A stretch of 63,925 nucleotides of DNA, filler included, from Aduncisulcus paluster (taxonomy: Eukaryota), in assembly GCA_024181965.1 (NCBI GenBank). It is 6 parts of 6 records of this genome, joined end to end, with 100 filler letters (N's around TTAATTAATTAA, not from the genome) between each part and the next. Parts side by side here need not be neighbours in the genome. Positions count along the whole stretch, not along the records: positions 25,074 to 38,324 come from BQXS01010866.1; positions 38,425 to 44,833 come from BQXS01010867.1; positions 44,934 to 51,363 come from BQXS01010868.1; 3 more parts are not named here. One strand, written 5' to 3'. The notes below the pieces were generated by a model, which searched no databases, was not told the DNA's origin, and saw only the letters and a list, made by a program, of their open reading frames with translations. The position numbers and the translations under genes are program-made. This document shows positions 25,255 through 49,969 of this stretch, piece after piece. The stretch's first letter is position 1. Each line of letters begins with the position of its first letter.

Positions 25255-28200
25255 ATGGTAAAAACTGGTATTATTCACCTTTCCTCAAGCGATTTTTCTC
25301 CCTTGTGTATTCTTCAGTCAAATGAAGATAATAATCATCTTCTAGTGGAACATAAAGATGATCCGTTTGATATACGTGTTTTTATCCAACATAAAATTAC
25401 AGATCCATCAACTAAGAGGGAAGTGGAAAAAAAGGCTAAATTTCTCGCTTCATTTTCAGACCATCATCAAGTTGGACACCGATTCCGAAAATATATTGGG
25501 AACATTGATGAATCTTCCCCAGATGTATTAGGGATTTGTGTTGGATTTTGTGACTCATCTTTATTGTCATTCGCAAAGTCTTGGTGCTTAACTTCGAGTG
25601 GGACCTTTGATCCAAACAAAGTTGTAATCTTGAGTTTTGAACTACTTGATTGTATTATTGAGGTTTTTGAAAATTCTCCAGAACACTTTGTTTTAAACAG
25701 CCCAGATGCGTTTCTCATGAAATATGACACCAAATGGCGCTTAGTTCTTGATGTCGATTCCTCTATTCCCAATCCTTCCTCTTATGTTTCATCTCACACT
25801 TCGATGATTTCCTTTCAAAACCTCGCTTTTATCCCCCCCGAAACTTTGCAATATAACAATTATTTGCCAAGTCGCAGTATAGCATGGACACTCGGCTTGC
25901 TCCTTTGGTCTTTATTTAATGAATGCGAGATCCCGTACCTTAGCGATCCGTCTGTTTCCAAATATCTCAATGACAACATGAAATGCACCCCAGAACACTC
26001 TGAAACAGCATTCAAGGCTTTGCAGACCCGTATTTGTGAAGGAGAAATTCTAGATTTTTCAGAATCACCCCTTTTGAAAGCCTTAGAAGCCAAGGGGGGA
26101 GCCTATGTTGAAGTGTCAAGATCTCTCACTGAGATTTACAACTTACTTGTGCACAAAGATTTTCACAAACGCATTTCTGTGCCTGTTGGAGCTGCATCAT
26201 CCAACCCATTTTCAATTATTAAGAATTTAAAAGGGGAGATCGCTCACCTGTATGCTCGGTTTCCATCAGTCAGTTCCGGATTCAAACCCCCTCCCACCAC
26301 CAAGCTTATATCCCGTCAGCTTGATGCATTTGATGGCAATCCCGGGATCTTTGGTGAAATTACTAAGGCTAATTACATCAGTTCGGAGAAAGTTCTTCCC
26401 TTTTCACACCCTTCCATCGCTCCCCTGTCTGAATTAAGTCGACATGTTGAGTCTACCATTCACGATCTCCCGTGTCTCGAGTGTTTCTGCCAAGGTGGCG
26501 ACCAGCACATTCAGTTCTCCTCCATGAAGTTATCATTTGTTGGCACTCCTTCTCTTAAGGGGTTCAGATTTAAAGTAACGGGCGATCGAATTCCACATTT
26601 CTTGTCCTTTACTTTCACAAGAGCTTCAGGGACTAAACTTTCCATTCTATGTTCAACGGAGAAGGCCCGACAGAATGCGACATATTTTGTTCCATTCAAG
26701 GTTGATCGCGTTAATTATTGTGAAATTAAGTGTATATCAACATGGTATTGCTCAGATCCAAAGCCAGAATGCAGATTTGATTCCCTCCAGTTTATTTTGA
26801 CCGCAAAAGAAGCTACTTTAGCTGAGGAAGAGCGCACTAAGTTCCTTTCCGAGCGCGATAAATGTGTGATTCCATGTGGCTTTGTGCCAAATAGAACATA
26901 TAAATCCCCCCTTATTCCGCTTGATTCTCCCTCGACAATCAAGATCCCAAAAGGTAAAATTACAGCAAATCTTGCTCACAAAACCCGTCTTTTCACTGTT
27001 CAAGATTGTCTTGTTGGAAAAACTAGAGCTAAATTTTTCTCTATTACACTCCCAATGCCTGCTGCTTGCCATGTTGGTGCCATTCATCTATATTCTAACC
27101 CTGCCAACAATGGAGTTCGATTCTTAGATGTTGAGCTCAAGTTCAGTGGAGGTTCGACTATCACGAAGGTATTCAATTTCCCAGAGAGCAAGGAAGGGTG
27201 GTTTGTTCTTCCAATCAATGAAAAAAGCATTGTGAGTTGCACTATCAAATCTATTGAATCATGCACTGGGCTGAAATGGAGTGAAATCGCAGCTCTCTCC
27301 GTTATCTCACCTCCAGCACCTACTCCGACGCCACCAGTGGCTTCACCCAGTACACCAAGCAGGAAGAAGAAAACCCCAGATTTGCCTGTTATTTCTTCCT
27401 TGTCCGGAATATCTTCAAAATGTATTATCGGAAAAGGTGCGTTCGGAGATGCTATTCTCGTTGAGTTAGTTGATTTATACGGCGTAAAAGAGACTCAATT
27501 CGCCGTTTTAAAACGGTTGCAAGCAACAAAGATTCAAGAAGGTGATTGTTTTGTTAAGTCAATGAAAAAAGAATCGAAGACACAACTTAAACTTTTCAAC
27601 GCCTGTCCTGATCGTATTCCCAAGCCACTCTATATCCTTGACATTATCCCCCCTTCCAACCCTTCTTCACGTGTTTATGGGATCATGATGGAGTATTGTA
27701 AAGGACTGAGTGTGAAAGAGTTCACTAAGACCTGGGCACGTGACAAAAAAGGAAACGGATATGATCCTTTGAAATTGGCCTCAGTTTCAATGCAAATGAT
27801 TCTTTGTCTTGCTGAAATATCAGAGAAGGCCTCGAAGAGGAGTCTTGTTCATCGAGACATTAAACCTGAAAATTTCCTTGTTCGTGTTGATGATAGAAAT
27901 TGTTGTAAAGTTGTTCTGGCGGACTTTGGACTTGCAACTGTCAGAGATTCTCTTTCCAAAAGCTCACTCCATGTTCCTGTTGCGAGAGATTTGGACAAAG
28001 AAAAGGAGTATGATGACAAGGGCAAAGAAGAAAAGAAGAAAATCACAGGCACCATCAAATACAATGCCCCAGAAGGGTTGTCAAGAGGGTGTTATAATTC
28101 CGCCAGTGATCTGTTTTCTTTGGCGATTTCTATCTATTCCATGTTCAACCATGAACTTGAACCACCCCCTTATCATGGTTGTTACACTCCTACTGACCTC

Positions 28201-28581
28201 TTAAGTTATCTAAAGAAACACGGAGCTCCCGATATCACACGTCTTCCGAAGTTTTTGGAGCTCAAGAAGGCTCACAAGAATGGAGTTCAGTTATTCTCTA
28301 CTCTTGAATACATATACCATGAATTGACAATCATTAACGAAAAAGAGCGTACAATGACCATTAAAGAGGCTAAAAGCTTGGTATATGAAGTGATCCACCT
28401 TGTTCCAAATCTGCTTCCTTACGATGGTTGGGTGTGCCCTTCCACTGATCGTCTCATTGATAAATTGCTGGACGAACACGGAAATGTCTCAATTGTTCCA
28501 CCTGACGAAGACGAAGAGGAAGAGGAGGAGGAAGAGGAAGATGGGGGGGAATTGAAAGTTCCTGGCCCAATCAATTGGTGA
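25255..28581 (+). CDS. Tandem kinase: N-terminal pseudokinase, two ~150-aa beta modules, C-terminal Ser/Thr kinase
   Basis: C-terminal GKGAFG, AVLK, HRDIKPEN, DFG, YNAPE, SDLFSL; the N-terminal part keeps FIPPE..SIAWTLGLLLWSLF but lacks HRD and DFG. Confidence 0.88.
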   Translation: MVKTGIIHLSSSDFSPLCILQSNEDNNHLLVEHKDDPFDIRVFIQHKITDPSTKREVEKKAKFLASFSDHHQVGHRFRKYIGNIDESSPDVLGICVGFCDSSLLSFAKSWCLTSSGTFDPNKVVILSFELLDCIIEVFENSPEHFVLNSPDAFLMKYDTKWRLVLDVDSSIPNPSSYVSSHTSMISFQNLAFIPPETLQYNNYLPSRSIAWTLGLLLWSLFNECEIPYLSDPSVSKYLNDNMKCTPEHSETAFKALQTRICEGEILDFSESPLLKALEAKGGAYVEVSRSLTEIYNLLVHKDFHKRISVPVGAASSNPFSIIKNLKGEIAHLYARFPSVSSGFKPPPTTKLISRQLDAFDGNPGIFGEITKANYISSEKVLPFSHPSIAPLSELSRHVESTIHDLPCLECFCQGGDQHIQFSSMKLSFVGTPSLKGFRFKVTGDRIPHFLSFTFTRASGTKLSILCSTEKARQNATYFVPFKVDRVNYCEIKCISTWYCSDPKPECRFDSLQFILTAKEATLAEEERTKFLSERDKCVIPCGFVPNRTYKSPLIPLDSPSTIKIPKGKITANLAHKTRLFTVQDCLVGKTRAKFFSITLPMPAACHVGAIHLYSNPANNGVRFLDVELKFSGGSTITKVFNFPESKEGWFVLPINEKSIVSCTIKSIESCTGLKWSEIAALSVISPPAPTPTPPVASPSTPSRKKKTPDLPVISSLSGISSKCIIGKGAFGDAILVELVDLYGVKETQFAVLKRLQATKIQEGDCFVKSMKKESKTQLKLFNACPDRIPKPLYILDIIPPSNPSSRVYGIMMEYCKGLSVKEFTKTWARDKKGNGYDPLKLASVSMQMILCLAEISEKASKRSLVHRDIKPENFLVRVDDRNCCKVVLADFGLATVRDSLSKSSLHVPVARDLDKEKEYDDKGKEEKKKITGTIKYNAPEGLSRGCYNSASDLFSLAISIYSMFNHELEPPPYHGCYTPTDLLSYLKKHGAPDITRLPKFLELKKAHKNGVQLFSTLEYIYHELTIINEKERTMTIKEAKSLVYEVIHLVPNLLPYDGWVCPSTDRLIDKLLDEHGNVSIVPPDEDEEEEEEEEEDGGELKVPGPINW

Positions 28582-28980
28582 TGATTTATGATTGATATGA
28601 TTTGAATAATTTGATGGCGAACATAATTGTTTTTGATATTCTATATTGTTTACCACAATGTTATCCTATTGGTTTTGTATATCGTTATACTATTGGTTTT
28701 GTGGCGATTCTTTCCCATTAAATTGTTGTTGTATAACCCCACATGTTCAATAAAACATTTTGAATGTTAAAAGATCGGCATCAGCCGAAGAACCGGTATA
28801 AACCGTTGGAGAATTTCCTGCGCGTATAATGAGGTTAGCCACATAAATATGTAAAAATAGACAAAAATAAAATACTGAACATTAACATTTCTGAATTATT
28901 GTGCTTTTCATTTCACTTCATAGATTCGTGGCTGTGATTTTTCTACATGGCGCTTTTTGTAACACACAATTAATTCATAA

Positions 28981-30606
28981 ATGAAAATATATCCCATTAC
29001 GACAATATTACTTATTTTTACATGTGGTTTAACTCTCCTTGTGGATATTGATGTTTTTGATCCTAATACTTTTTATTTATCATGGGGTAAGGTGTTCCAT
29101 GGAGAAATTCACAGGTTATTCACATCTATCTTATATGCAGGAGAGCTAAACATTGGTTTTTTGATTAGGATATTATTATTTGCCAATTCTATCTATAAAT
29201 TAGAAAGTGAAGCATATTCTGGAAAGAGAGTTCGCTTTTTGATTTTATTATGCTATTCATGGTTATCCATTCTATTTATTTCTGTGTTTTTTCCATTGAA
29301 ATTGTTCTATTTTGATGTATTTGAGCCATTAATCCTCTATGTGTGGTCGAAGCTTCGTCCTAATGTTCTTCTTGCGCTTTTGGGAATTTTAACATTCCCC
29401 GCTACTGCTCTTCCCTATGTTAATATCATTTTAAACTTGGTTTCTGGAAAAGCTATCCTCCCTTTAATTATTGGGGACGTTCTCGGTCATCTGTACTTCC
29501 TTTCTGAATTTGTATTTCCGAGATTATTTAAGCTTCCTTCTGAGCCAATCAATGAAGCAGAAGATGAAGCAGAAAATGAAGCCTCTGAATACGAAGAGGA
29601 AGAAGAAGAAGTTGAGATCCAAGGAGGGCATGTCACTGGTTCTACAGTTTCTCATCCTGATATTTCTGCCCCCTTGAGTAATTCCAGGGAGCATGAACAT
29701 CGTGAACAACGTGTTAAACTCGAGCAAAAAGGATTGATTGGAGTGAGGTCACTATCAGATCCCATTGACACTTCTCTCGTTGGAGGTGGTGATCTTTACT
29801 CCTCCCGCTCTGATGTAGCCCCAAACATGGACGATCTTGGCGAGGATATTGAGATTGAGAGCGATGAGAGTGAGGATATCATGGATGTTGGAGACAGTAA
29901 TGCCAAACCAGACGATGTCCCCATCCATATTGATGTGGTTTCTGGTCACCATCCTGCTGATCCTTCAAGAACTTCTGCTGTCCAAGATGATTCTCGTCAT
30001 CCTCGTGAAGCCGATACGATTACTCCTTCATCACGCCCAGATATGATTCTTGATGATGACGATGGCATTGATGATATGGAAGATATCTCCATATCTCACA
30101 CAAGAGAGGCTCCACGTGGATTCTTCAAGACAATCATTGATAGATTCACTCAGAACACCTCCTCTTCCTCTTCCTCTTCCTCTTCTTCTTCCACAATGAC
30201 ATATGGTTCCTCTGGCAGTCCTGTTGCTTTCAAGGGAGGCTCACATGTAGTCGTTAACGAAAGGAAAGTGCTGGATACAATTGTCAGGGATTCGATGAAA
30301 GAGCATGAACTCGACGATGTAGACGACGGAGACAGACAGGGCGACCTGGATGATCTTGGCGTCAAGCCTATTTCAAGCACCCACAGTGAGGATGAAATGA
30401 GGAAAATAACCGTATCAATCCCACAAGAAGGCGGAGAGAAGGGGCCTCAGAGAGTCCTTTCGTTTGAAGACGATGAAATGTTCGTTTCTGGCCGAGAAAG
30501 TGCCGCCATGTCAGCGACAACAAGTATGGCGGAAAGCGATTCAAAGTATTTCAAGAGGAGAGAGCAATCAAAAGATACGACAGAGGATGAAATAGAAAGA
30601 ATGTAA
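28981..30606 (+). CDS. Derlin (Der1-like rhomboid pseudoprotease) with a long acidic C-terminal tail
   Basis: PIT..., EIHRLFTS (WR-motif position), YKLE, LYVWSKLRP, FPATALPYV, IIGDVLGHLYF (GxxxGH); several hydrophobic segments in the first ~185 aa. Confidence 0.85.
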   Translation: MKIYPITTILLIFTCGLTLLVDIDVFDPNTFYLSWGKVFHGEIHRLFTSILYAGELNIGFLIRILLFANSIYKLESEAYSGKRVRFLILLCYSWLSILFISVFFPLKLFYFDVFEPLILYVWSKLRPNVLLALLGILTFPATALPYVNIILNLVSGKAILPLIIGDVLGHLYFLSEFVFPRLFKLPSEPINEAEDEAENEASEYEEEEEEVEIQGGHVTGSTVSHPDISAPLSNSREHEHREQRVKLEQKGLIGVRSLSDPIDTSLVGGGDLYSSRSDVAPNMDDLGEDIEIESDESEDIMDVGDSNAKPDDVPIHIDVVSGHHPADPSRTSAVQDDSRHPREADTITPSSRPDMILDDDDGIDDMEDISISHTREAPRGFFKTIIDRFTQNTSSSSSSSSSSSTMTYGSSGSPVAFKGGSHVVVNERKVLDTIVRDSMKEHELDDVDDGDRQGDLDDLGVKPISSTHSEDEMRKITVSIPQEGGEKGPQRVLSFEDDEMFVSGRESAAMSATTSMAESDSKYFKRREQSKDTTEDEIERM

Positions 30607-31089
30607 TGAAAGTGGGGAAGATCGAAAGATCCGTCTCTCTCTGTCTAAGTTCAATGTGAATTATACTATCACATGAGATAGAAAATGGTGAGTTAAGAGT
30701 GTAATTTGACGTTATATGCGCTTTTTTGCTTGTATTATGTCTTTGTTCTTTGATGACACCAACAATCTGCATCTCTCGGACAATTCTTTGCCAATTCTCA
30801 TATGATTATTTGACAGCATTCATTGGCCAAAATATAAATACAAAATAATGAAAAAAATCTATTTCTTTGATTTATTAATAGATTAAAACTTATTTTTGAC
30901 ACAAAAGCAAAACAACTCTCTCTCTGGAGATTGTCAATATTTGATTGATATTTACGAACATATATCATAAATAAAGTTATTTTATTGTTGATTTTTGATC
31001 GCTTTATAAGTTTTTATTCATTATTTTTGTGGCTAAATTTGTAAAATGCAATTTTGTCCCAATTTAAATTAGTTATTGAAATATTTAAC

Positions 31090-34000
31090 ATGGATTTTAC
31101 CGCAGAAGAGTTATCTAAATTGAGTGAAGAAGAATTATTGGCTCTACTTACACAAGTTCGATTATTACAAGATGAAGCTTCTAAATTTGAAACTAATCCG
31201 AAAATTCCAAAAAAATTGACTAAAAAATCTAAAAAGAATAAGTTGAAACATAAAAAAGCCATTGATATTGAAAAAAAGTTATCATCTCTTGCGGAATCAA
31301 TTGCCATTACAATCTGTGATATTCCGAAAACAAAGAAAACTAAAAGTATATTCAGTGATTCAATGATAACTAAACGCCATGATATCGACACTTCAATCCA
31401 TCAAAGTGATGATAGAATTGCCGAACATAAACATATCACCTCCACATTCATTCAAGATCCTTCAGGCCTTTATTCTCAAGACTTACAAAAAGAATCATCT
31501 TCTTTCCCTCCATTATCTTCTGCCCAATCGATTCAATCAACTCTTAAATCTCATAATAATACTCTTGGTAGCCATACTTCTTTGTTACCTCGGGCAAGTA
31601 CTCCACCGCCGACCCATTCGTTGTCTCCATCGATTGAAGAGGAGAAAGAGGATATTATGCATACCTTAGCTAGTCGGAAGCATCAACCCATTCCGTCCAA
31701 ACAACAACAAAGTCGGAACTCCATTTCTCAACATGAAGAATCAAAAATAGATTTCTCTTTGCAACCTGATACGTCATTCTCATCTAAGAATCCAATTATA
31801 GAACATTCTCAGATTTCTACGGACATGATATCTTCAATTCTTCTTGAAACGTTACCGAGTGTCATTTCTCCACCCTCGCTTGACGAATTAGCTCAAATTG
31901 AAGCCGAAGAACGTAAAAAATATAGTATAAAGAAATTATCTTCACAAAAAGAATCATTATCTGATCATCGAGAAGGAGAAAAACATCACCCATCATCAAC
32001 TCTAAAACATTACACAAACAAATTAATCGAATCATCAGCAAAGAAAACGCCATCAAAATCGCTACTGCCAAAGCATAACAGACCAAAACAGTCTCATAAA
32101 AAACGTGTCAAAAAATCGTCCCATGTATCCAAGAAAGAATCTAAATTACCTACATCTTCTGATTCCTTTTCGAGTGCGACAGAAATATTTGAGAAACTTC
32201 GTTCTTTGCAACAAACTCTTCAGTCTTCAACTTCACATCCAACCACCACACATGACACTAAAGAAGATGCAGAACAACAACACCCTTCCCTTTCACATTA
32301 TTCAGGTTCTATTTTTAGCTCTATCGGTGTCACTGATACCCCTATTTCAAGATACAAAGCCAGGACGAGAGAAAAGAAGACACATATTCATATCTCTTCA
32401 GATCAGTCAAGTCCAGGATTAAATCATAATAGAATAGAATCATCACAATCACAATTACAAACACAATCACAATCACAATTGCAATCACAATCGTTGTTCG
32501 ATCTTTCTAAATCTGACCTCTCTCCAACGGTTCCATCTTCCTTAGTTTCTCAGTCAAATCTTTCACATGTGGAAAATGAGGAGGGGCTTCTTCAAGATAT
32601 TTATAGATCTAAGGAGATTGACACATCTCTAAATTCCAAGAAGAAACCTGTTCTGGAAATGATCCAAGATTTGATTTCCTCCACTCTTATTGAAGAAGAA
32701 GAAGAACATTCGCAGGTTTCACGAATTCGTGGCCATGAACAAGAGATTCAGACCACTCCTTCCTTGCTTAGATCCTCTCTGAGAAGCATTGGAGAAGACC
32801 CAACAAAAGAGTTGCTTGAGCAAAAGGAAGAAGAAGAAGAGCAAAAAGAGGAAGAAGAGCAAGAAGAGCAAGAAAGGGAGGAAGAGGAAGAGGAAGAGGA
32901 AGAGGAAGAGGAAGAAGGCGATACTCAAGAGCAAGAAGGTGATACCCAAGAGAAACAAGAAGAGTCAGTGGAAGAAAATGAACATAGTTTTTCCCATGAT
33001 GATAATGAGACCCATGACGATGACTTATCTGAGCATGTTCATCCTAAAATACCTCATTCTATTGCTGAATCATTCTCAATGACTCATTTATTCTCAATAA
33101 TTCCAGACAATCCCCAATCAGTGTTATCTTTGTCTCACGTTGCACAGCATATCGGCACTTCCTCTCAAGAAAAAGAGGAAATAACACATTCAATAAGAGC
33201 TGATGAAGCTTTGAATGCGGTCAAACCATCGTCTGAGACTGAGCTTGGTTCCACTAGAAATGATATGAAGACACAGTATCCATTCCAGCTTTTCCAAACA
33301 ACGTTATTTATTCCGCGGAATGAGGAGAAAAGGTGTGTGTGTGATCAACTCCACACTCAGGGAGGTTTTAGTCATCTTTGTCCTGCTCTTCAACTGACTG
33401 AGTTCCAGGAACTCACTTCTTTGACGACAATGTTTGACCATTCGGTAAAGAAAGATGAAATGACTGTATATTCGTTCTATCTCCGTGAGTGTCAGCGTGT
33501 TATTCGGAAAACTCACATTGCTTTGCTCACTGCCACCAAAAATATCTCGCTAAAACCTACAGAGTATTGTTCAGCATCCATTCCATCACATAACCATATT
33601 CGTACTGATGCCTTGACCTCTCTGTGTTCTCGAATCCCCAAAGAATGCTCTGCAGTTCATGCATACGCTTTGTTGGGTATTATTACGGCCTCTTTGTGTG
33701 GAAATGACAGTTACTACGCCTTAGAAATGCTTCAATACGCCTTTCCAAATGAGGCTGCGGAAGATCAATCATCATCTCTACCACTTGAAGATGAAACCCT
33801 TATTGAAAGAGAAGTTATTCTTCTGCTCTCCAATTGTGTGAAAGTCTGTGGATCAGTTGGAACTTCGATGAAGGAAATATACGAGAATAGGAGGAAGAGG
33901 AGGAGGCGAAAGACAAAGAAAACATCTATTTTAGATGATTCATCTTTGTCGAGATCATCTTTCCTGAAATCTGAAGGGTTTACTGCCGATGTAAGTGATT

Positions 34001-35514: not shown

Positions 35515-38302
35515 TCATTCCTTCTCTTCCTCTTCCGAGTCTTCTTTCCGTGAATCCCCTTTCTTATCAAAAGAATGGTGGACAATTTTAGTTTCATCGC
35601 TATCTATACGCCTTTCTACAATATGATTATGAACTTTAACAAAGATTGAAGGATGGTCATAATGTCTAACAGCGTGGTCAAGGGATTCTCCGAAAGTCTC
35701 TTTACAATCACAATGGTGCTCAGAGATAACACTTTCATCAGACCTGATATTTCCAGGAAGTCCATATCTATCAAGGTTAGCTCCAACAATATCTTCAGGT
35801 CTTGGAAGTTTATATCCTGCTCCAAGAGAAGGAAGTAATTCTTTGATTGATTGTACTCTCTCACAAGCTTCATGCACACTCATACGTTCTGCAGGGTTGA
35901 ATCGGATGAGACCATAAATGATTTCTTCAAAACATGTATGAAGATGCTTGTATTTACCTTCTTCCATGGTCTTGAGTTTCCGGAAAACATACGAGTCTGA
36001 AAGTGAAAGTTTACACCGTTTCTCGATTAATCTTTTGTAAAATGCTTCCACACTATCTAAACCTTCATATGCTTGCATTTGAGTGAATGGAGTGCATCCA
36101 AAGAAAAGGGAGAACAAAGTGAGACCCAGTGAGTAAGCATCACTCTTTTGAGTCTCAATGCCATCAAAGGATTCGGGAGATTTGAACACAAGAGATTCAA
36201 AGATAAATTGATCCGACAACGATGAAACAAATTTTCTTCTCTCTTGTCGAGAGAGTTGTTTTGAGTGAATTATCATGTCACGAATATGAAGAACCAATGC
36301 CATCAAGAACAACAGTGCACTCCTTAGAGGTGGAATCGACACGAATAAGGAAGTTGTTCGGTTTGATATTTCTATGAATGAGATCAGGTTTTGCCTTGAG
36401 AATATCACTGACACACTGAATTATATCAGCACATAGAGCACATATCCTCAGAGGATCAAGTAAAGTCAAATCAACAGGTCTCATTGATTGTCGGCTTGAT
36501 GAGGAAGAGCTTGATTCTGAATGGTCTGAATTCTTATCACTGTCACCTGAACCATAGGATTCTGAGTCAGAATGTAGCTCTTCCTCACGACCATCACTAT
36601 CGTCTTCATCTCCATCATTTCCATCTCCATGATCATGTATAACCGCTGTACTATCCGATTCTGTTCCTCCCATGGTTGATTCTCTAACATAACATGCATA
36701 TTTGCCTTGTGAACACCAACTCCTAGCAAAGTCCTTTACATTACCTCCAAGACAAAATTCCATGATGAAACCATAAACACCTTTCATATTCGAATCCATT
36801 AGATCAAGAATATAAATAGGACGTGTGATACGATTGAAACATTTAGGATTATTATACAATTCTAATTGCATCTTGAAATCTCTTCTGCAATATTTAACAA
36901 GCTTTTCATCAGCATCATAATAAAACATTTTCTTCAACACACAAGAAAATGGAATACCATCAACTTGAACAAGAAGAACCTCTCCGAATCCACCACTGCC
37001 AATGATGCACTGTGAAGGCAGCGTGGATTCAGATGTCAGGGTTAGCGAGTCGTTCTTGGGGTTATACTTGGGCTTGCCATCCTTGGGATTTTGTTTCTTT
37101 TTATCCTTGTGTTTCTTCTGTTTGGTGTCTTTTGGTGCTGAATCCTTATCATTTCCTATAATAACAATTTCTTTCACAGGTTTTGATGGCAAGGACAAAT
37201 TTGATGTGGGTGTCTTGGAGGAACTGAAAGGAACATGAACATGAGTAAGAAGAGCAGGAGAGGTAGGAATATCATCACCTCGAAGGAAAACAAGTGAGTA
37301 GATCCAGAAACATCGACTATTCTTCATATCCCACGTTCCTTTCCCTTCAATCTCACACAATACAACATTAGCCAAATCAATAGGAAGGAAGTGCCATTCA
37401 TAGTAATTTTTAGGTTCTGTGAATTTATACTTAATGAATGTCTTCTTACCATCACAATCAGTGAAAGTGAAGAGAAGAGAGGGTGAACTATCATACTTAC
37501 TCACACATATATAAGAACCTTTCATGGGGCTAGGTGATGGGAAAGGGATGGAAAGATGGGATAAGGACACATAATCTTCCGCTTTTAACATTTTTTGTGC
37601 ATTTGAACTTTGATCATAATACTTAGATTCCGTACTATACGAATCATCTTTGCACTTAATCATTGCGAATGAAGGATCTACAAGCTTTGGATCATTTCGT
37701 GGAATGGGAATAGAATCTCTACCTCCGTCCTTAACAAACTCTGGATTCACAACTGGAGCTTCAGACCAAAGTTTCTCTCTGGCTTCACGAGATTTGATTT
37801 CTTCAGGGGTTTCTTCTCTACAAATGAAAATGAGGGATTCGATTTTAAAATACTCTTCCTTTCTTCCTCTCCCTGTAATCTCGCATAGAACAACATCAGG
37901 GAGATCAATAGGGAGAAAGAACCAGCTTGTTTTTTCTAATTCAGGAAATTCTTATTTTTTAAACATTTTCTCCCCCTTTGAAGATGTAAGAGAGAAGATA
38001 AGGTATGAAGGAAGTGGAGAACTGGATGATTCTCCTCCAATACAAATACAAGCACCCTTAATGGGAGTAGATGTGGAGAAAGGAAGGGAGATATCTGTAA
38101 ATTCTCCCCGATTACGCTCTCCTTTCATCATCTTTTGTGCTGCAGAACTCTGATCATATTCTTTATCACCTTTTCCCTTGGTCCTATTCTTTGCTTTGAT
38201 GACAGTTATATCAGGACTCTTAACATTTGGGGAGTCTCGGGGAATTGGAGAGCAAGATTCGTCACCTTCATGAATAAACTCTGATTTAATGGTGGGCTAC
38301 AT
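35515..38302 (-). pseudogene. Disrupted Ser/Thr kinase with two N-terminal beta modules
   Basis: One frame from ATG 38302 with in-frame TAG (38299-38297) and TAA (37954-37952, where the sister repeat has Tyr); GSGGFG, VLKK, HRNIKPNN; frameshift near 36300 at the DFG position; the C-lobe (SPE..KSDAYSLG) continues in ORF 35515-36414. Confidence 0.8.
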
Positions 38303-38324
38303 ATCATTTTTGAAAAAGAGATAT

Positions 38325-38424: not shown

Positions 38425-39593
38425 GAACAACTATATAGCCTATGCAGGGTATATAAGGCATTAAAATTATAGATATCCATGGAATACGTGTCAGCGATTT
38501 CTTGACAAATATACAAGTATGTAAGCTGGTTAAGGGTTGCAATATCATTCACACCAGAGATATCGGTGTCTTTCAAATTAAAATAGTGAATATTGATTAA
38601 ATATTGAGCACCGATCAAAGTAGTAATATGAGATTTATCGGCAAAAATCTTTCCACTTATCCCACCCATCTCAAACTCAGACACGTCACAAAAGGGGTCA
38701 ACACTAACGTCATATCCAGCATCAGAACAAATACGCTTTCTGAATAGTTTGTCGGGAATGTGCACAGAATACAGTTGGTCACATGCATCTCCATACCAGG
38801 CAGAACGGCATCCAAGGGAAGGTGCTGATCCTTCATCGGCAAGAATACACATGTGATACTCATCAATGTCGGATGGGCACAAAGACTCAGAGTCTTCAAC
38901 ACACGAATATGTGGCTTCGTCATAATAATACCCATCCTCACACTCGGCAGCATAGCGGCCGGAATAAACCTCAGTGCAGACTTGATGGTCTTCCTCAGAG
39001 AGATACAATGAACATTCTTCGGAGAAACCATAACTAAACCCAAATTGAAAGAAAGAAGTTAGAATAACCGAAAAGATGACCAAATATGACCATGGGGTGG
39101 GCAAATAATACCTTGGATTTGAAATAGTTGATATAAATTTTCTACATTTTGAAACAGCAATAATCACAATAATAAATGAAGCGATTAGAAATAATATTAA
39201 ACTAAAATACAAAAATAGAAACATTGTGATTCTGTTGTGGCCGAATAATGTAGCCGAAATTATTTCTCTAAAATTGGTTGGTTGGTCTTTAATACAAAAA
39301 GTAGATGGTCCTGGGGGATGTCCATTGTCAGGTAAATTAATTCTATTTGGATAAAAATAATGTTGAATGGCAAATCTATCTATCACAGGACAAATGGCTT
39401 CAAGCCAATGACCAAGTTGGTCATTATTCAAATGAGATAACCAACATACAAGGGGAACACAAATAAAAAATATAATAAAATGCGAAAAAGGAGATAAGAT
39501 TCCGAAATTAGCAGAGCCATTCACGAAATAGCTAATGGATTTTTTTTCCATTAATGGGCAGGTGAGAAACGAGTTTTTACCACTGAAAACCAT
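38425..39593 (-). CDS. 3'-partial Cys-rich (EGF-like) plus leucine-rich-repeat surface or secreted protein; true start uncertain
   Basis: Hydrophobic segments, then ECEDGYYYD...C, CRSAWYGDAC, IPDKLFRKRIC, ITTLIGAQYLINI..FNL...ISGVNDIATLNQLTYL (internalin-like LRR); runs into the spacer. Confidence 0.65.
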
Positions 39594-40117
39594 AATACAT
39601 GAAAATTAATGGAGATTAGAAAGATACTAGAATGGAATGAATAATCAAATTGTGCATTTCCCATTGCATTTCTTTTATGTGAGCAAGGAGGGTCTAGAAA
39701 GATTGTAAATGTGCGAAAAATAATTAAAATGCATTGTTATTATTGTTTCATTTTTAAGAAAAATAAAAAATAGTGGTATTGCTGAGATTGAAATTCGGAT
39801 TTTTTATTTGTGTTTCAGAGAGCCAATCTTTCATTTTTCGAGTATTGTAACATTATTTGAGATATTAAAATTTTTATTTGCTTGATTTAACAATAGATCC
39901 CAGACTGGGATTCCCAGTTAAACATGCTTCATGAAAGAAGGAAAGACATAACAGACATCGGATGTCTTTCCTTCAAAACTTATTCGTTTCAACTGCAACT
40001 TGTGCATTCCCAAGGTAGTTCTCATAAGATGGGATTGTGAAAAGTGAAAGCAAAAAAGATCGATTTGTGGTGCAGATAATCTTCTCACTCCTGTTGTTTA
40101 CATGTAGATAACAAACT

Positions 40118-43114: not shown

Positions 43115-43514
43115 TATTTTTATTTAATTTAGATCGATGTGATTCATATTCTTCAAAATAAATTCTTGGAATTATGCTTTAATGTTTAGAATAATATATA
43201 TGAATTCAAAAAGATATCCATGAAGCCATTGCAGTATAAAATATTCGAAATATAATGAATTTGATAAATAAAGTAGATCTATGAAATTATTTAGTGAGAT
43301 CTCAATTCATGTAGGCCAATTCAGAAGGAGGATCTGTCGGCTCCTCAAGCTATAGTCGAGTGTCATTTAAGATGGGGAATATTCAACCTCAATGAATAAA
43401 ACAGATTGAAAAGAACAAAGATATTTGGGCAGATTCAAGATATATCAAGAGAAAATGGAAACTTTCCACAATTGAGAAAATAATCGAGGAAATCCAATTT
43501 GGAAATATGGGAAA

Positions 43515-44240
43515 TTATTCAACAGAAATGGTGCCCTGAATTAAAGGAGCAATTTCAGATTTCGAAACTTCCTCTTCTTCCTCTTTTGACTTTCCAAGAG
43601 CTTTTGCCAAACTGCAAATAAGGCAATCAACAATAATCTTTGGAGAAATATCTTCTCTCATGATTGGAACAACCAGATTCCATTTTTGAGATTCGTAAAA
43701 TTTGTAAGTTTTTTCCATCCACTTCCGGCTGCCTTCATTAAATTTAACTCGATGGGGTTCTCGAGCAAGACGAGCACAAATTCGTTTCCAAAGCAGCTCC
43801 TTTTCGACACTAAGTAGAGCTGCAAAAATGAAAATTCCGCTTGAAGTGAGTTCATCAATCTGTTTTCTGATAATTGGACTTAGGAGTTCCCCACCATTTT
43901 GAGCATAAAAACAGGCTGAATATGGTGATCTATCAGCAATAAATATGGTTGTATCACGTTTTGAAGGGGGACATTCAGCATGAAGTTTCAAAATCCGTGT
44001 AAACCAATGAGCCACCCACACAAACTCCATTGTAAGCGTTTGAGGATGGAGTTCAAAGCTTGGCATATCCAAAAAAGCTTCATCTAATACATTAAAACCT
44101 TTTTTCTGGAATTCTTTCAAAATTGTCGACTTTCCGGAGCCTAAAATAAAACAGAGATTAGAGGAATCAAGAATGATAGGAAAACAAATAGATTGTGAAT
44201 ATTACATACCGTGACATCCTTCTAAGCATAATATGATCAT
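43515..44240 (-). CDS. P-loop nucleoside/nucleotide kinase-like protein (dNK/TMPK/AAA_28-like), two exons (44240-44210, 44140-43515)
   Basis: Splicing builds MIILCLEGCHGSGKSTIL (Walker A); later IADRSPYS and RICARLAREP lid motifs. Confidence 0.85.
44141..44209 (-). other. Spliceosomal intron, 69 nt, phase 1, within the P-loop
   Basis: Donor GTATGTAATATT, CTAAT branch candidate, TTTTATTTTAG acceptor; removal restores GxxGxGKS. Confidence 0.92.
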
Positions 44241-44516
44241 TTTCTATAATATTTAATTGTTCACTGGGCAAGACGTAATCTGCGCAAAACCCTCCAAAAA
44301 TAGATAACAAGAAAAAAAGGGAGGCAAATTATTTAATTGCATAAAATAAATATTTGCGAGCATTTTTCAACTCAAAACGTGCAAATTGATTTTATTCTAT
44401 ACATTCCTACTCAGATACATCAATTCAAAAATTGAATGGAATTATTTTGACAAAGACGAAAAAAAGGGCATAATAAAAGCATTATCCAGTCAAGAATTTA
44501 CTAGAAACTAAGGAGC

Positions 44517-44833
44517 TTAGAATCCCTCGTCGGCCATACCTTCATCTTCACCCTCTTCAATAGGACTGTCGGCACCGATCTCCTCGTAATCCTTCTCAAG
44601 GGCAGCAAGATCTTCACGAGCCTCAGAGAACTCACCTTCTTCCATACCTTCTCCAACGTAGTGGTGAACGAAGGCACGCTTCTGGTACATAAGATCGAAC
44701 TTGTGGTCCATACGAGACCAAACCTCGGCGATGGCGGTGGTGTTGCTGATCATAAGACAGCTTCTCTGAACCTTGGCAAGGTCACCTCCGGGGACAACGG
44801 CAGGGGGTTGGTAGTTGATACCAATCTTGAAAC
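44517..44833 (-). CDS. TUBA: Alpha-tubulin, 3' fragment
   Basis: [85 protein letters not shown]-ending codon bias. Confidence 0.98.
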
Positions 44834-44933
44834 NNNNNNNNNNNNNNNNNNNNNNNNNNNNNNNNNNNNNNNNNNNNTTAATTAATTAANNNNNNNNNNN
44901 NNNNNNNNNNNNNNNNNNNNNNNNNNNNNNNNN
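44834..44933. other. Artificial contig spacer
   Basis: N block with TTAATTAATTAA. Confidence 0.97.
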
Positions 44934-45811
44934 ATGGGAAGATTTGTGTGCTTATTCCAGATTTTTTTGTCCGTTGTAAACATTTTTCAAGGAAAGGTCT
45001 TGGTAAAAAAATGCTTGAAATAATCAGAAGATGTATCTTTGGCTTACCCATTGGACTCTATGTCTTCAAAACAAATGTAAAAGCGTATAAATTCTATTTA
45101 AAACACGGGTTTGATGTAATACCGGTCTTTCCTCTATCTTCTTCACAGGCAGATTCTATTGTACCTCCCTCTTCCTCCTCTTCTTCCTCTTCCTCTTCCT
45201 CCTCTTCTTCCTTGACTCAAGAACCCGTTACATCGATAATTGAGAGTGGTATTCACCAATCATCACTCTCTCCAACTTGCACTCCTCCCTCCTCCTCTAC
45301 ATCTTCAATGTCCTCCTCTTCCTCTGCTCCATTGATGCAAGAGAGTACTCTAAGTTCTGTTGATGATGTTATTTCGACATCATTGGACTTTGATAGTGAT
45401 TCTCATGGTCCTCGTGGAATGACAAAAGATCAAAAAGATCAAAAAGAACATCCATGCTGTACTCTTGTTGATTATACTTGTCCAATTATGGTTGAAAAGG
45501 GGAAAGAGGAAGAGAAAGAGAAAGATTCTCCTCCAATTATTGTATCGAATCCAATATCAACACTTTCTAACAAGAAAGTTCCACCATCTTTTTCTATTTT
45601 TAATTCATGTCATTTCATGGTCCAAACCCAGGAAGATTGGAATGAAGTGTGTGGAATCAGACATTATGGAGATACACTCTCTTTATTTCACTTCTTAACC
45701 ATTGATGAAAGGGAGAAATTTGTCCGTGAATTCACCCTTGATCGTCAAAAGCACAGAATAATGAAAGATGGTTTGCTGAAAGGCGTTTCTAGTGAAGGAA
45801 TTGCTCTATAA
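44934..45811 (+). CDS. GNAT-family acetyltransferase, 5'-partial, with a Ser-rich insertion
   Basis: Motif A RKGLGKKML; motif B LYVFKTNVKAYKFYLKHGF; frame open from the spacer. Confidence 0.8.
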
Positions 45812-46228
45812 TGGTGTTGCTAAGTATTTTATTGCAATCATTGCTCCATTTGACTAAAGCCTAATAAATCTATTATCAGTACACTCGATCATAAGAACAT
45901 CAAATGCACGAAACTATTCTTGATATTTTAAAGAGTTTTTAACGTCTAAAATTTTTGTATTTAAGCCAATTAATAGAGTTTTGGGAAAACAGGTTTTCTC
46001 TTGTCATTCTATGGAAATTGAAATTTTTTATTCATTTAAAAATATTTAAAATTCCTTTTTAATTAGCAAATTTGATAAATAATCACATATTATTAATTAA
46101 TGAATCATTCATTACGGATGATCCGTGACTGAGTTTGTGGTGATATCATCATTCCAGTTCGTTTTTTAATTCAAAAATCAGACATATTTTTGGATTTTCC
46201 CGCTTTTTAACAATTAATCTTTTTTTAA

Positions 46229-49200
46229 ATGGGAATTTGGTCAGCATTTCTTAAACAAGGATGTAATCCCGGATTGTATCCACCTGGGAAGGAACCAAAG
46301 GGTAAGAAACCACCAAAATTAATTGCATCACACAATGTTGTTCGTATTTCACCACTTGGTCTGAATAATGCCGAATTGAATTTCGTGAAAGGAACCGGAG
46401 GTATTCGTCTTCTTGGTACACTTCCATTAAAGTTCGATACATGTTCAAATGTTAGGGAAATATATATGAATGTGCATAATTTTTCCGGACCCAAACAACT
46501 TATCATAACTTTTGAACACTCTGATGGGATAAGCAAAACTCAACTTACTTACGATTTTGTTCGACCAACGTCAGAGTTCGAATGGCATCTACTCCGTGTT
46601 GATCGCCTAGAAAATGTAATATCATGTCGAATTGAGTCTAAAGGGGGTTCTTGGAACGGAATAGATGCCAGGCCCAGTATTTTTGGGATTCGAATAATGT
46701 GTTTTACTAAAAAACCAAGTGTTCTCTTGAAAGAGTGTCAATCGGATTTGAAAGAGAGAGAATCAACGATAATAGAACTCCAAGCAAAGATTTCACAAAT
46801 GTTTGAGGATCAAAGTGATCTCGTGAAAGATTTTCAATCGGAGTTGACCAGAAGAGACTCAACAATAACAGAACTCCAAACAAAGATCAGTGATCTTGAT
46901 TCCAGATTGTCTGCCTATCAACAATCCAATGAACGTGAATATCTCGTCATGGCTCGTAAATACGACTCATTACAAGAAGAAATATCGATTGTGTCCGATC
47001 GTCAGGCTGGAGCTACCATTTCTGTTAATTCGTCTGTTCAAGCTCTCTACGATTCAACAGTCAAACATCGTGACTTTGTTTTGAGTTGTATAACAAAGTT
47101 AGCTGATATTACGGATGAATCGAAATGCACGAGTGCCTCTATTATTGCGAGTATTTCCCCTTCTCTGTGGTGTGATTCTGAGTTTGGAAGTTCCTCTTCA
47201 TCCTCTTCCCCTGTTACCTATATCCTAAGTTTCCTTCGTTCTTTGCAATATGATAGTTCTTTTCAATCATCACATTCGGAACCTTCCTCTTCTTCTTCCC
47301 CATCTCCCTTGGATATATTGAATGGTATGCACAGGAGTATTCATTCTATGGTCAATTTTATCGATGAATCTTCCTCGTCACATCGAGATCTCTCTTCCAT
47401 TACCCCGATCCCATCTCCTCACGGCATTGTTTCTGAAATCCTCTCGCCAATTCCAGACAACCCTTGCTCGAAGACGTTGAATGATCGTGTGAAATCGCTT
47501 AAGTCCCTTTGCAATCTTGTGACATCTAACATGACCTCTGGTAATGTTCCTCCTATCGTGAGAACAGGAAAACAGTGTATATCACATCTCATGCTTTTCT
47601 TATCACACATTGTCGATGTTACTGTTACTGATGTTGATGATTCACTTTCTTCCCAGGCCTTACTTAACACTTGTGACCATGTCTCTGATGCAATTACAAA
47701 GTGTTTGCGACGTTTTGAAAAGAGTGAACATGACTTCAACGGATGTCTATCACAATATGAATTAATTAGAAAACAGTCGGAGTCATGTGCAGAAAGGATC
47801 GGTGATCTGAGTATGTCTACAATGCATGATGATTCCTGGGTGCTTGATGCTGCCACTGAAATAACTCAAATATTTCAGAAACTTAAAGATGAAGAAATAC
47901 CCGCAATTCCATTAGAGGAGAAGCAGGATGAGAGCTCCACTGACGAAGTTATGGCTATTTCTTCAAATTTTCTGACTTCTGTGTTGGTTTCCAATGCCAT
48001 TGACTCAGAGTCACCTAAACCAAAAGCCAAGGCTATCTCCTCGATGCTTCCTGAGTTTTCTCCATTTTCTAGTTACAAGAAAACACACTCGATGATAGAT
48101 AACGAGTTGGACAGATTGGATGAATCGAGTCTATCTCTGTTCCACTCGAAATACTCTTCTTCAATGGACTCTCTCGATGAAAGTATTGATATTCTTGCAA
48201 GTAGTTTATGCTCTCACATTTTATCCAGCTTAGAACAACAATTTGAAACTGATTCGGCCCTTACTTCCCTTAAAGCACGCGTTAGCGGACATTCCCATAA
48301 GACTGGCTCGGTTATGTTGGCCGATCTCAACGATGGGATGAAAGATCAGTGTAAGCATGAAGCAGAGACCTTTTCTTCCCTTCTAAACGTTCTCAATGTT
48401 GATTCTGGATATGTTCACACTTGCGAATCTTTTGAATCCGCCATTGTTTCTGTTGTTAATAGCTTATGTTCGATCCTTGACGTTTGCACAAAATATATGC
48501 ACATTATCGTTGATTATTATAGAGCTCTTCTTTTCTGTCTATTGCGAATGTGTGAGCTCTGCGGGTGGCGCAATAGTGTCGGAAACATTGAAGGAAGTGA
48601 GGATGAGATTGAGAAGATTCGTTCTGAAATGCAAGAACTGAGAAAGTTGATGAAAGGAAAACAAATGAAAAAAGGAGTTCTCATTCATGTTATTGAGAGT
48701 CAAAAAGAAAAGCTTACCCATCTCCAAGATCGTTCAAAGTCTTCTGGCACAACTTCGTCAAAGTTTGGACTTGATGATGAAGACAGCGAGGATGAATGTG
48801 AGGAAAATGTTGAGTTGTTAACTAAAACCCTCGATAATAATGAAAAGAAGTTGGAGAGAATTGCCAAAAACATTTCAACCATTTGCTCTGAGATGAACAA
48901 AAGGTATCTCCGTTGCATTGAGCTTCAGAAACATGCTAGTGCCTTATCTAGTGTGGGATTCTCTATTCCCCCGTGTCTCGATGAATCATTGATATTGTCC
49001 TATCCCTGTGTTAATGAAGGTGGAACTGACTGTGACGATCAAGACGAAGGAGACGCCGATAGAATGGGGATTCGCCGGTCATTTGGGAAGGATGAGGGTG
49101 CTCTTCCACTCATTTTTAGTACGGGAGTTGCTCTTGGTATGTTCAGTGATATTCAAGAGATTCGTTCTTCTGGTGGTTCGGATACTATGTCCAAGGATAG

Positions 49201-49969
49201 ATTCCTTCATGAGGGCAATGTTTTCTCTGCTCGCTGGCAGCTTAACGATACAACCCGTGACGTTGTGTTAAAGTTTATTGATATTCCAAACGATGGAACT
49301 GTTGGGTCTTCGGATATATCACCAACACATTATCGTACTTTGTTACGCTCTGCCTTTTCTGCACGCACTGGGAGTGACTGTCCTTATATTATTTCTCTTT
49401 TAAGTGTATTCTATGATGAGCATGTTCTCACTCCTTCCAAAACAGGAGCATACCTTGTCTTTCCATTCTATTCCAATGGGGACATGAATTATTGGCTCAA
49501 GAAAGCTCCTCGTTCAATATCTTCAGTTCGTCTCGTGTTGAAGAGTATTCTCCATGCTCTTGTCCACTTGCATCGGAATGGGATTGTTCACTGTGACTTG
49601 AAACCTCAGAATGTGTTGATCGATTCAGATGGACACGGAGTTCTCTGTGACTTTGAAGCTGCAGTAGATTCAAGCAATCGAATGATTGGAATATTGAGTC
49701 AAACCATGCGTGTGGGTACTCCAGGTTTCATTGCACCAGAGTTACAGAAATCGATGGCCAGGCATCAACACCCGCACCCTTCCCCAGCAAGTGACATTTA
49801 TTCATTCGGCATTCTCCTGAAGGATGTGTTCAAGACAATGTCCGAGTACGGGCCATCTCCAATCGAAATGCCTTCTGAAATATGTGCAATTATTGATTCA
49901 TGTCTGAGTGAAGATCCAACCGATCGTCCCATGGCCACAGATTTACTCGCAAACAAATGGTTCATGTAG
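46229..49969 (+). CDS. Kinase: N-terminal beta module, coiled coils, C-terminal Ser/Thr kinase domain
   Basis: VVLK, HCDLKPQN, DFE (for DFG), GTPGFIAPE, SDIYSFG, DPTDRP; no Gly-rich loop. Confidence 0.88.
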   Translation: MGIWSAFLKQGCNPGLYPPGKEPKGKKPPKLIASHNVVRISPLGLNNAELNFVKGTGGIRLLGTLPLKFDTCSNVREIYMNVHNFSGPKQLIITFEHSDGISKTQLTYDFVRPTSEFEWHLLRVDRLENVISCRIESKGGSWNGIDARPSIFGIRIMCFTKKPSVLLKECQSDLKERESTIIELQAKISQMFEDQSDLVKDFQSELTRRDSTITELQTKISDLDSRLSAYQQSNEREYLVMARKYDSLQEEISIVSDRQAGATISVNSSVQALYDSTVKHRDFVLSCITKLADITDESKCTSASIIASISPSLWCDSEFGSSSSSSSPVTYILSFLRSLQYDSSFQSSHSEPSSSSSPSPLDILNGMHRSIHSMVNFIDESSSSHRDLSSITPIPSPHGIVSEILSPIPDNPCSKTLNDRVKSLKSLCNLVTSNMTSGNVPPIVRTGKQCISHLMLFLSHIVDVTVTDVDDSLSSQALLNTCDHVSDAITKCLRRFEKSEHDFNGCLSQYELIRKQSESCAERIGDLSMSTMHDDSWVLDAATEITQIFQKLKDEEIPAIPLEEKQDESSTDEVMAISSNFLTSVLVSNAIDSESPKPKAKAISSMLPEFSPFSSYKKTHSMIDNELDRLDESSLSLFHSKYSSSMDSLDESIDILASSLCSHILSSLEQQFETDSALTSLKARVSGHSHKTGSVMLADLNDGMKDQCKHEAETFSSLLNVLNVDSGYVHTCESFESAIVSVVNSLCSILDVCTKYMHIIVDYYRALLFCLLRMCELCGWRNSVGNIEGSEDEIEKIRSEMQELRKLMKGKQMKKGVLIHVIESQKEKLTHLQDRSKSSGTTSSKFGLDDEDSEDECEENVELLTKTLDNNEKKLERIAKNISTICSEMNKRYLRCIELQKHASALSSVGFSIPPCLDESLILSYPCVNEGGTDCDDQDEGDADRMGIRRSFGKDEGALPLIFSTGVALGMFSDIQEIRSSGGSDTMSKDRFLHEGNVFSARWQLNDTTRDVVLKFIDIPNDGTVGSSDISPTHYRTLLRSAFSARTGSDCPYIISLLSVFYDEHVLTPSKTGAYLVFPFYSNGDMNYWLKKAPRSISSVRLVLKSILHALVHLHRNGIVHCDLKPQNVLIDSDGHGVLCDFEAAVDSSNRMIGILSQTMRVGTPGFIAPELQKSMARHQHPHPSPASDIYSFGILLKDVFKTMSEYGPSPIEMPSEICAIIDSCLSEDPTDRPMATDLLANKWFM

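Follow-up and report, generated by a model that had tools for sequence, protein, structure and literature searches.

The DOC/APC10 domain (PF03256), carried by APC10, HERC2, HECTD3 and CUL7/CUL9, is a peptide-binding domain that reads substrates for ubiquitin ligases. One report suggests that DOC specificity comes from loop variation (PMC13018541). Other ubiquitin-ligase substrate-binding adaptors, the F-box and MATH-BTB families of nematodes and plants, are described as having multiplied through birth and death, with positive selection acting on them and a proposed role in foreign-protein detection (PMC4334554). The fungal HNWD NLRs, among them het-d and het-e of Podospora, are cytosolic, exchange near-identical repeats and show few selected surface sites (PMC1805685). 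F-type lectins, CBM32 and F5/8 type C domains are jelly rolls that occur in tandem and vary in their top-face loops (PMC5712786). In Giardia, a related fornicate, the Nek/TALM-ankyrin/Protein 21.1 expansion is reported as a large, lineage-specific growth of kinases in which ankyrin repeats follow a Nek (71% inactive) on its C-terminal side; the repeat arrays vary, some relatives lack the kinase and pseudogenes form rapidly, and a targeting role has been proposed for the Nek-ankyrin proteins (PMC3218828).

We analysed a window of 63,925 nucleotides, six contigs joined by N linkers, from Aduncisulcus paluster; one short-read draft assembly of one strain was the sole source. This organism is a free-living anaerobic flagellate and a fornicate. 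The standard code fits the window, where long frames stay open, and an alternative code (TAA/TAG=Q) was rejected. The first-pass annotation had proposed five copies of one module, here called M, carried by all three protein kinases in the window on two contigs. A catalytic-loop pattern run over six frames of the window found exactly three kinases on two contigs, all with the module (Table 1), and these belong to two unrelated lineages, K1/K2 and K3. A profile built from 144 young copies at other loci recovered all five modules (iE 8e-82 to 3e-6), as did one from 193 non-window copies (iE <= 3e-18); reversed frames gave no match below iE 0.3 with the module profiles. In pairwise alignment, seven of ten comparisons reached z 4.9-47 (500 shuffles); K1-M1 with K1-M2 and K1-M1 with K3-M were non-significant (z -0.5), and K2-M1 with K3-M was marginal (z 2.4). 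A crude hydropathy scan found no hydrophobic 19-mer above 1.54 in K1, K3 or the first frame of K2, in agreement with the earlier reading that none has an obvious transmembrane helix.

Table 1. Features of the three module-bearing kinase genes, in window positions.
Feature	Position	Strand	Description
K1 gene	25255..28581	+	1108 aa, single open frame, pseudokinase-M-M-kinase
K1 N-terminal pseudokinase	25294..26247	+	K1/K2 lineage; E 5e-19 to profile of 36 K1-type kinase domains
Module K1-M1	26395-26814	+	old divergent class, without close paralogue
Module K1-M2	26830-27312	+	old divergent class
K1 C-terminal kinase	27424..28434	+	GxGxFG, VxK, HRD, DFG, APE intact
K2 kinase	35809..37015	-	HRN replaces HRD, no DFG, frameshift near 36286, stop 36280-36278
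Module K2-M2	37750-37274	-	young B subfamily; copy used for folding
Module K2-M1	38290-37811	-	young A subfamily, in-frame TAA at 37954-37952
Phase-0 intron 3' end	38297..38324	-	acceptor TAG 38299-38297; splicing inferred from sequence
K3 gene	46229..49969	+	1246 aa; M-helical region-kinase; second, unrelated lineage
Module K3-M	46289-46726	+	divergent class
K3 middle region	46739..49018	+	all-helical; common to a second expanded family
K3 kinase	49184..49966	+	HCDLKPQN, DFE; only motif-level similarity to K1

Three architectures had been assigned to these genes, and that of K1 stood as described. Its N-terminal pseudokinase is degenerate, without Gly loop, HRD or DFG, and its C-terminal kinase belongs to a species-expanded lineage, with best PDB matches to GCN2, Nek2 and RIPK1 (1e-7 to 1e-6). 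The K1 locus was matched with 0 differences by a contig of run X1 over 25074-28498 and by another, from run X2 (possibly RNA), over 25271-28498. For K3, described as M-coiled-coil-kinase, the module and the kinase held; the 760-aa middle is all-helical, and a plain long helix occupies only its first ~90 residues. The N-terminal slot before K3-type helical regions holds M, M-M or, in three loci, a DOC-type domain. The K3 kinase had no PDB match at 1e-15, and the helical region had no Foldseek match at E <= 0.001 and none in an Atlas search; generic hairpin matches (Z ~10) were dismissed because they fell below the noise level for helical models. The modules of K1 and K3 have no close paralogues (26-47% identity); the module tree was a quick one, with long branches. 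K1 and K3, old members present in single copy, may have fixed roles.

K2 could not be upheld as a whole M-M-kinase, since the gene begins at a contig end and extends upstream on contig C195. The overlap with this contig covers the last 361 nt without a mismatch, and the contig adds a phase-0 GT..AG intron and another A-B module pair. Because the overlap supplies this intron, the TAG upstream of K2-M1 is read as a splice acceptor, and the same junction recurs in three open arrays (L159, L161 and L163). C195 carries the same in-frame stop as K2-M1 in its two A copies. The frameshift of K2 is missing from a sister on C10195 with 97% identity, which is broken elsewhere. K2 is a decaying young family member.

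We modelled K2-M2 (pLDDT 97) and obtained a galactose-binding-like jelly roll with 17 Foldseek matches at E <= 0.001. The model matched APC10 (E 6e-5, Z 11.9, rmsd 3.4, 138 aligned) and many other jelly-roll members (Z 11-12, rmsd ~3, 118-142 aligned), so that fold scores do not separate DOC from CBM32, F5/8 and muskelin. The module is thus predicted to have the two-sheet fold of this class. Fold comparison therefore bore out the DOC/APC10 resemblance noted at first pass, and a sequence bridge leads to DOC as well. With hhalign, the module matched the genome's own DOC domains at 92% (E 6e-7) and 96% (E 5e-9) over 104-108 columns, against <= 1.1% for reversed and 10 column-shuffled controls, and at 77% after three slot-sharing rows were left out. 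The genome's DOC alignment in turn matched human APC10 at 7e-23 and a CBM32 at 1e-4. The module ending noted earlier, WNGIDARPSIFGIRI, aligns to the DOC NH..G.D..R segment. These comparisons suggest that the module shares descent with the DOC domain, transitively through the organism's own DOC domains.

The module differs from DOC in that its loop motifs are lost: YWQS occurs in 1 of 310 modules and NH..G in 4 of 310, versus 11 and 8 of 12 DOC rows. Pfam gave no credible family for the module, and PF03256 had 11 matches in the genome and 0 in the window. ANAPC10 was missing among the listed Pfam families for 122 members (25 of 33 families covered) and for 49 divergent members; F5/8, CBM32 and F-type lectin families were likewise missing among the listed matches for both sets. 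With the divergent-module profile, the genome's best ANAPC10 match scored only 1.3 bits, no more than a control made of a single F5/8 domain sequence of the same genome. Module profiles searched against PDB sequences gave 0 matches and 1 chance match, with no solved DOC chain, and a DOC query against plasmids, intended for an outside control set, gave no match.

We measured selection by pairwise counts in the two young subfamilies, choosing variable sites on 72 B and 39 A copies and testing them on 61 B and 43 A held-out copies; discovery and held-out copies share ancestry, and all were picked as strong matches. Four window modules fell outside the test: those of K1 and K3, because they have no close paralogues, and K2-M1, because a stop interrupts it. 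There were 19 diversifying sites in B and 17 in A. In held-out copies, pN at these sites was 0.545 (B) and 0.571 (A), and the framework had pS 0.171 and 0.224 and pN 0.073 and 0.103, respectively. The ratio of variable pN to framework pS was 2.9-3.5 (B) and 2.3-2.8 (A) over 200 disjoint pairings. Variable-site strings were distinct in 132 of 133 B and 81 of 82 A copies, and Tyr, Asp, Glu, Ser and Lys were frequent at these sites. Diversifying selection on the young copies is strong and site-specific, with the framework fixed.

Three segments, aligned to the YWQS, DESYTP and NHQNGRD stretches of APC10, hold 13 of the 19 B and 9 of the 17 A sites; the remaining 6 and 8 lie outside them. The DESYTP and NHQNGRD stretches are given in one source as the D-box-binding 80s and 140s loops of APC10 (PMC5717348). 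By this alignment, most variable sites appear to lie on the loops that bind the D-box and on one loop next to them. Judged from the alignment and the order of strands, they would form one common ligand face.

The family comprises ~590 young copies and older ones, and all named homologues found are from Aduncisulcus paluster. Modules occur in tandem arrays of 1-13, either free-standing or on the N-terminal side of kinases from two unrelated lineages. Of 262 records with the module, only 83 carried the main kinase type; the module is not confined to kinases, and most members have none. Together with few signs of secretion or membrane passage and with broken genes, these numbers support the lineage expansion, cytosolic character and birth-and-death turnover suggested at first pass. 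The module is like DOC/APC10 in fold, transitive homology, cytosolic character and variation at substrate-binding loops, and unlike it in numbering hundreds, in tandem arrays, on kinases instead of ubiquitin ligases. It shares with the F-box and MATH-BTB expansions the multiplication of a ubiquitin-ligase substrate-binding domain, but its output domain is a kinase; no BTB, F-box, RING or other ligase domain was found in 30 long module-bearing proteins scanned. On balance we lean towards M being a lineage-specific DOC/APC10 descendant that now serves a large family of cytosolic receptors as its variable recognition unit.

An alternative is that the family is a glycan-binding repertoire, CBM32-like or F-type-lectin-like, of the same design and with a variable face that binds microbial carbohydrates. 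CBM32 7jnb ranked first by fold (Z 12.0), level with APC10, Atlas gave weak leads to F5/8 and CBM32 clusters (0.89-0.90, recognition score below threshold), and aromatic residues occur at variable sites. F-type lectin isoforms are likewise described as differing in the loops around the top pocket, in an account in which they keep a basic triad in that pocket (PMC5712786). In contrast, no variable-face column of M holds an invariant residue, no sequence link from M to these sugar binders was found among the listed Pfam families or with the single F5/8 control while one to DOC was, and signs of secretion or membrane passage are few. We regard glycan binding as unlikely, if the least so of the alternatives.

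The arrays might instead serve housekeeping, placing kinases on diverse host structures, with the variation arising from that role or from relaxed constraint. The Giardia expansion is a precedent as reported (PMC3218828), and such a role is plausible for the old single-copy K1 and K3. However, relaxed constraint cannot raise pN to ~3x pS, and synonymous rates beside variable sites were not raised (0.176 vs 0.168; 0.224 vs 0.224). The system also departs from that of Giardia, with modules that are N-terminal jelly rolls, two other kinase lineages, no clear Nek affinity of the K1 kinase, no ankyrin domain in the 30 long proteins, and most recognisable catalytic loops intact (Asp kept in 56 of 59 motif matches). 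Housekeeping ranks as rather improbable, below glycan binding.

Recognition of self and non-self within the species, or conflict with endogenous selfish elements, would resemble the fungal het-d/het-e WD40 receptors, in which repeats are reported to be exchanged between copies and few surface sites are positively selected (PMC1805685). Four-gamete failures climbed from 54% within 30 nt to 80-82% beyond 100 nt (30 sites, 35 A-B pairs; homoplasy or chimeric assembly possible), and synonymous A and B distances still correlated (r 0.43). The fungal receptors, however, join WD40 to NACHT and HET in ~10 genes, whereas this family joins jelly rolls to kinases at hundreds of loci, with no NACHT or cell-death domain in the 30 long proteins, and Aduncisulcus paluster is not known to undergo cell fusion. 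We place this reading lower again.

That the variability is artefactual or targeted, through a diversity-generating retroelement, a mobile element or assembly error, is very doubtful: although arrays are collapsed in the short-read draft, with N gaps inside modules, and none of the contigs compared confirmed the K2 lesions, site entropy recurs in held-out copies (rho 0.85 and 0.83), transcriptome-derived EukProt records include family members, the 30 long members hold no transposase or reverse transcriptase, and change is not adenine-specific, because majority columns of A, C, G and T all vary at variable sites (0.33-0.51).

As the preferred receptor reading would have it, the module family looks like an inherited, germline-diversified intracellular recognition repertoire with putative kinase signalling. 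The variable sites would make up the face with which APC10 holds the D-box. The ligands would be non-self and differ from copy to copy, with peptides or proteins from ingested bacteria, intracellular parasites or viruses the most likely. Multivalent binding could cluster or de-repress the attached kinase, and kinase-free A-B pairs could serve as partners, decoys or a sequence reservoir for exchange between copies. A fuller version, which we put forward tentatively and hold short of probable, is that this free-living protist evolved an innate immune system out of the domain by which ubiquitin ligases read their substrates. Several hundred binders of DOC descent, with variable loops like those of antibodies, would be shuffled through gene conversion and through growth of the arrays exon by exon; they would sense cytosolic foreign proteins and signal via fused kinases. 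If true, variable intracellular receptors would have arisen independently here, on a scaffold that is not LRR, WD40 or immunoglobulin. The DOC domain would have been recruited from substrate reading to a diversified repertoire, a parallel case to the F-box and MATH-BTB expansions. Little is settled about how pathogens or intracellular bacteria are recognised by free-living protists, and the family is a concrete, testable candidate: its variable positions are defined, the ancestral ligand face is known and the output domain is a kinase. At 155 residues, cytosolic and predicted to lack disulfides, and with natural loop variants in the hundreds, the module is also an interesting scaffold for binder engineering.

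A literature search of titles and abstract openings found no description of the family. Single-query scans of metagenome and viral contigs, which reach close relatives only, gave 71 and 3 pattern matches, 0 confirmed. Contig depth, when summed across the B module, exceeded the single-copy value by a factor of hundreds, a figure that is not a copy number. N-terminal MG was present in 24 of 238 records, with no background rate for comparison. The same genome also encodes DOC-BTB proteins.

We read the window, six contigs with N linkers between them, in the standard code. A profile of 144 young copies of the ~150-aa module (M), all from other loci, recovered all five copies at the positions proposed in the first-pass annotation (iE 8e-82 to 3e-6), and reversed frames searched with this profile gave no match. 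The copies had been expected to align significantly; this held clearly for 7 of 10 pairs (z 4.9–47, 500 shuffles), while two pairs were not significant and one was marginal. A catalytic-loop pattern returned three kinases (K1, K2 and K3), each with a module, as had been claimed.

Genes and regions located in the window
Feature	Position	Strand	Description
SF-assemblin / beta-giardin gene	3502-4338
Dynein heavy chain	4644-18769		two overlapping frames
K1	25255-28581		pseudokinase-M-M-kinase
Derlin (DER1)	28981-30606		long acidic C-terminal tail
Multi-pass membrane protein	38425-39605	-	continues into cysteine-rich, LRR-like extracellular part
K3	46229-49969		M-helical region-kinase
Helical region of K3	46739-49018		~760 aa
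Open frame	54482-55894		weak P-loop match at start (NACHT, E 9e-4, below cut-off)
LRR protein	60789-61538	-	separate protein

The architecture proposed for K1 was confirmed: the degenerate kinase in its N-terminal part and the intact one at its C-terminus belong to one lineage (E 5e-19). K1 was covered with 0 differences by contigs of sequencing runs X1 and X2; that X2 is RNA is only a guess. For K3, the proposed order stood, with M first and the kinase last, and the middle, annotated as a coiled coil, is a helical region. The K3 kinase shared only the catalytic loop with that of K1. The modules of both genes belong to an older, divergent class (26–47% identity to their best paralogues). A Met-Gly start occurs in K3 and in 24/238 family records (raw count); some have Ser or Cys nearby, and lipid anchoring is possible. 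The helical region represents a second expanded family (L151–L200), confidently predicted as all-helical and without a fold match; a divergent kinase follows the helices, and the N-terminal domain is interchangeable (M, M-M, DOC-type or none seen).

K2, described earlier as a disrupted M-M-kinase, is disrupted and is not complete. It starts at a contig end, where the last 361 nt are overlapped exactly by contig C195, which adds a further pair of modules upstream, together with a phase-0 intron. K2 is therefore at least M-M-intron-M-M-kinase. The intron junction was also present in open module arrays elsewhere. Near-identical phase-0 intron-like sequence (~150 nt) lies between modules of arrays at three loci (L159, L161 and L163), and would permit array growth through exon duplication. 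The first K2 module in the window is interrupted by a TAA; the gene also has a frameshift, reads HRN instead of HRD and lacks DFG. These lesions were not reproduced in the run contigs compared; where those contigs differ from K2, they agree with other copies, among them a sister on contig C10195 that is 97% identical and is itself broken at another place. The in-frame TAA is also present twice on C195.

All named homologues were from Aduncisulcus paluster (the 120 listed of 231; 27/27 in another search; 20/20 weak representatives looked up). When 1.84 billion representatives were searched with a profile without filtering, 199 matched, 150 of them listed. The young subfamilies A and B usually occurred paired as A-B. 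Genome motif counts were 361 for B and 118 for A (control hits, 0); because these motifs detect 125/133 and 46/82 known copies, respectively, we estimate ~380 B and ~210 A copies. We counted 706 modules in 262 module-bearing protein records (a few of them duplicates), with 1–11 per record, and 13 stretches in one record by another count. A K1-type kinase was present in 83/262 records. The catalytic Asp was kept in 56/59 catalytic-loop hits, by a pattern that misses degenerate kinases such as the N-terminal one of K1. A hydrophobic 19-mer (>1.8) occurred in 20/268 records, several within modules or kinases. Annotated models P0126, P0013, P0056, P0105 and P0131 join modules to PARP, AAA/Vps4, LRR, MSP or NYD-SP28 domains; these joins could reflect genuine fusions or the merging of neighbouring models.

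AlphaFold prediction of the second K2 module with 122 copies gave pLDDT 97 and pTM 0.90, and APC10 was its top Foldseek match (E 6e-5, 12% identity). In a wide structure search, Z values tied (CBM32, 12.0; APC10, 11.9; F5/8, 11.7; muskelin, 11.5; HECTD3 DOC, 11.4), so fold alone does not choose among them. At six or more other loci of the K3-type helical family, the N-terminal slot is occupied by M or M-M. In three loci, it holds a domain with a YWQS-type motif, which we take to be DOC-like; no kinase was found there within the DNA examined. The genome contains 11 ANAPC10 matches above the Pfam cut-off, five of which the slot-domain search also finds, and encodes two DOC-BTB proteins. This small DOC expansion, alongside the large derived one, lies on C10847, C50, C12724, C481, C12323, C12589, C11895, C12603, C12528, C12530 and C10004 (G000; L201–L219).

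An alignment of 12 DOC-type domains matched human APC10 (7e-23), the DOC domains of CUL7/9, HECTD3 and HERC2 (1e-15 to 2e-10) and a CBM32 (1e-4). By hhalign, its match to the module profile stood at 92%, and that to the divergent-module profile at 96% (E 5e-9), with reversed and shuffled controls at ≤1.1%. The match was 77% without the three slot rows. Evidence against the link is that young copies alone reached only 12%, that module profiles had no direct match among solved DOC chains, and that, with the divergent-module profile, the best ANAPC10 match of the genome scored 1.3 bits, like a single F5/8 control, although other DOC rows scored 5–31 bits. The DOC motifs looked for in modules were lost. 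Fold and profile match together uphold the DOC/APC10 likeness noted earlier, and from these profiles M is read as DOC-derived yet outside PF03256.

Pairwise codon counts in a discovery set (72/85 B and 39/50 A copies, ≥70% identical to majority residues) revealed discrete variable columns within a near-fixed frame. We fixed 19 columns in B and 17 in A before the test, dropping three C-terminal B columns where copies run into differing downstream sequence. The held-out set drew on 60 newly fetched loci and comprised 61 B and 43 A copies not used before, after exclusion of 34 partial or gapped modules, 5 duplicates and 7/111 under the identity cut. Variable-site pN was 0.545 (B) and 0.571 (A), compared to framework pS of 0.171 and 0.224 and framework pN of 0.073 and 0.103. 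The proposed dN/dS check thus gave pN above pS at variable sites, by pairwise counts in sets that share ancestry. pS inside variable codons was somewhat higher (0.28, 0.32), still far under pN. Synonymous rates showed no rise beside the variable sites, and A, C, G and T all varied, which leaves the pattern unexplained by a local hotspot or by adenine-specific mutagenesis. Nearly every copy had its own variable-site string, and sequence exchange between copies is suggested.

In alignments to APC10, B columns 57–60 face the YWQS stretch, 82–85 the DESYTP loop, and 137–149 the NHQNGRD loop and next strand; 13/19 B and 9/17 A variable sites fall within these segments. Strand order in the model would place column 114 (in A, 115 and 117) at this end too. 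The available part of one review places APC10's D-box-binding surface in the 80s and 140s loops, including Glu87, Ser88 and Asn147 (PMC5717348), which by residue count fall in the DESYTP and NHQNGRD loops. We infer that most variable sites correspond to the ligand-binding loops of APC10 and a neighbouring stretch.

We lean towards the M family being a germline-diversified cytosolic recognition repertoire, with a predicted link to kinase signalling. Each module would bind a different ligand through the ancestral DOC face, arrays would contribute avidity and breadth, a fused kinase would relay binding, and kinase-free pairs could act as partners or reservoir. DOC ancestry and the compartment speak for ligands that are peptides or proteins from microbes. 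Glycan binding, to which the CBM32 tie points, is unlikely, as the sequence match runs to DOC, although it is the best placed alternative. Housekeeping targeting is improbable overall and most plausible for K1 and K3; allorecognition or internal conflict is slightly less probable again. An artefact behind the variability is highly improbable.

In how it would function, this recognition repertoire is comparable to the HNWD receptors of fungi (PMC1805685), expansions of F-box and MATH-BTB adaptors (PMC4334554) and isoforms of F-type lectins (PMC5712786), with a parallel in the Nek expansion of Giardia (PMC3218828); it lacks the defining features of each as given in the accessible parts of these sources. 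Excerpts of another paper list DOC domains in ubiquitin ligases and propose that loop variation sets specificity (PMC13018541). The family goes unmentioned in the accessible portion of the announcement of this species' genome. Literature searches listed no title or abstract opening that describes it.

Elsewhere in the window, the dynein frame changes near 14072–14351, through either an intron or an assembly frameshift. The multi-pass membrane protein and the separate LRR protein are possibly members of a surface-protein family.
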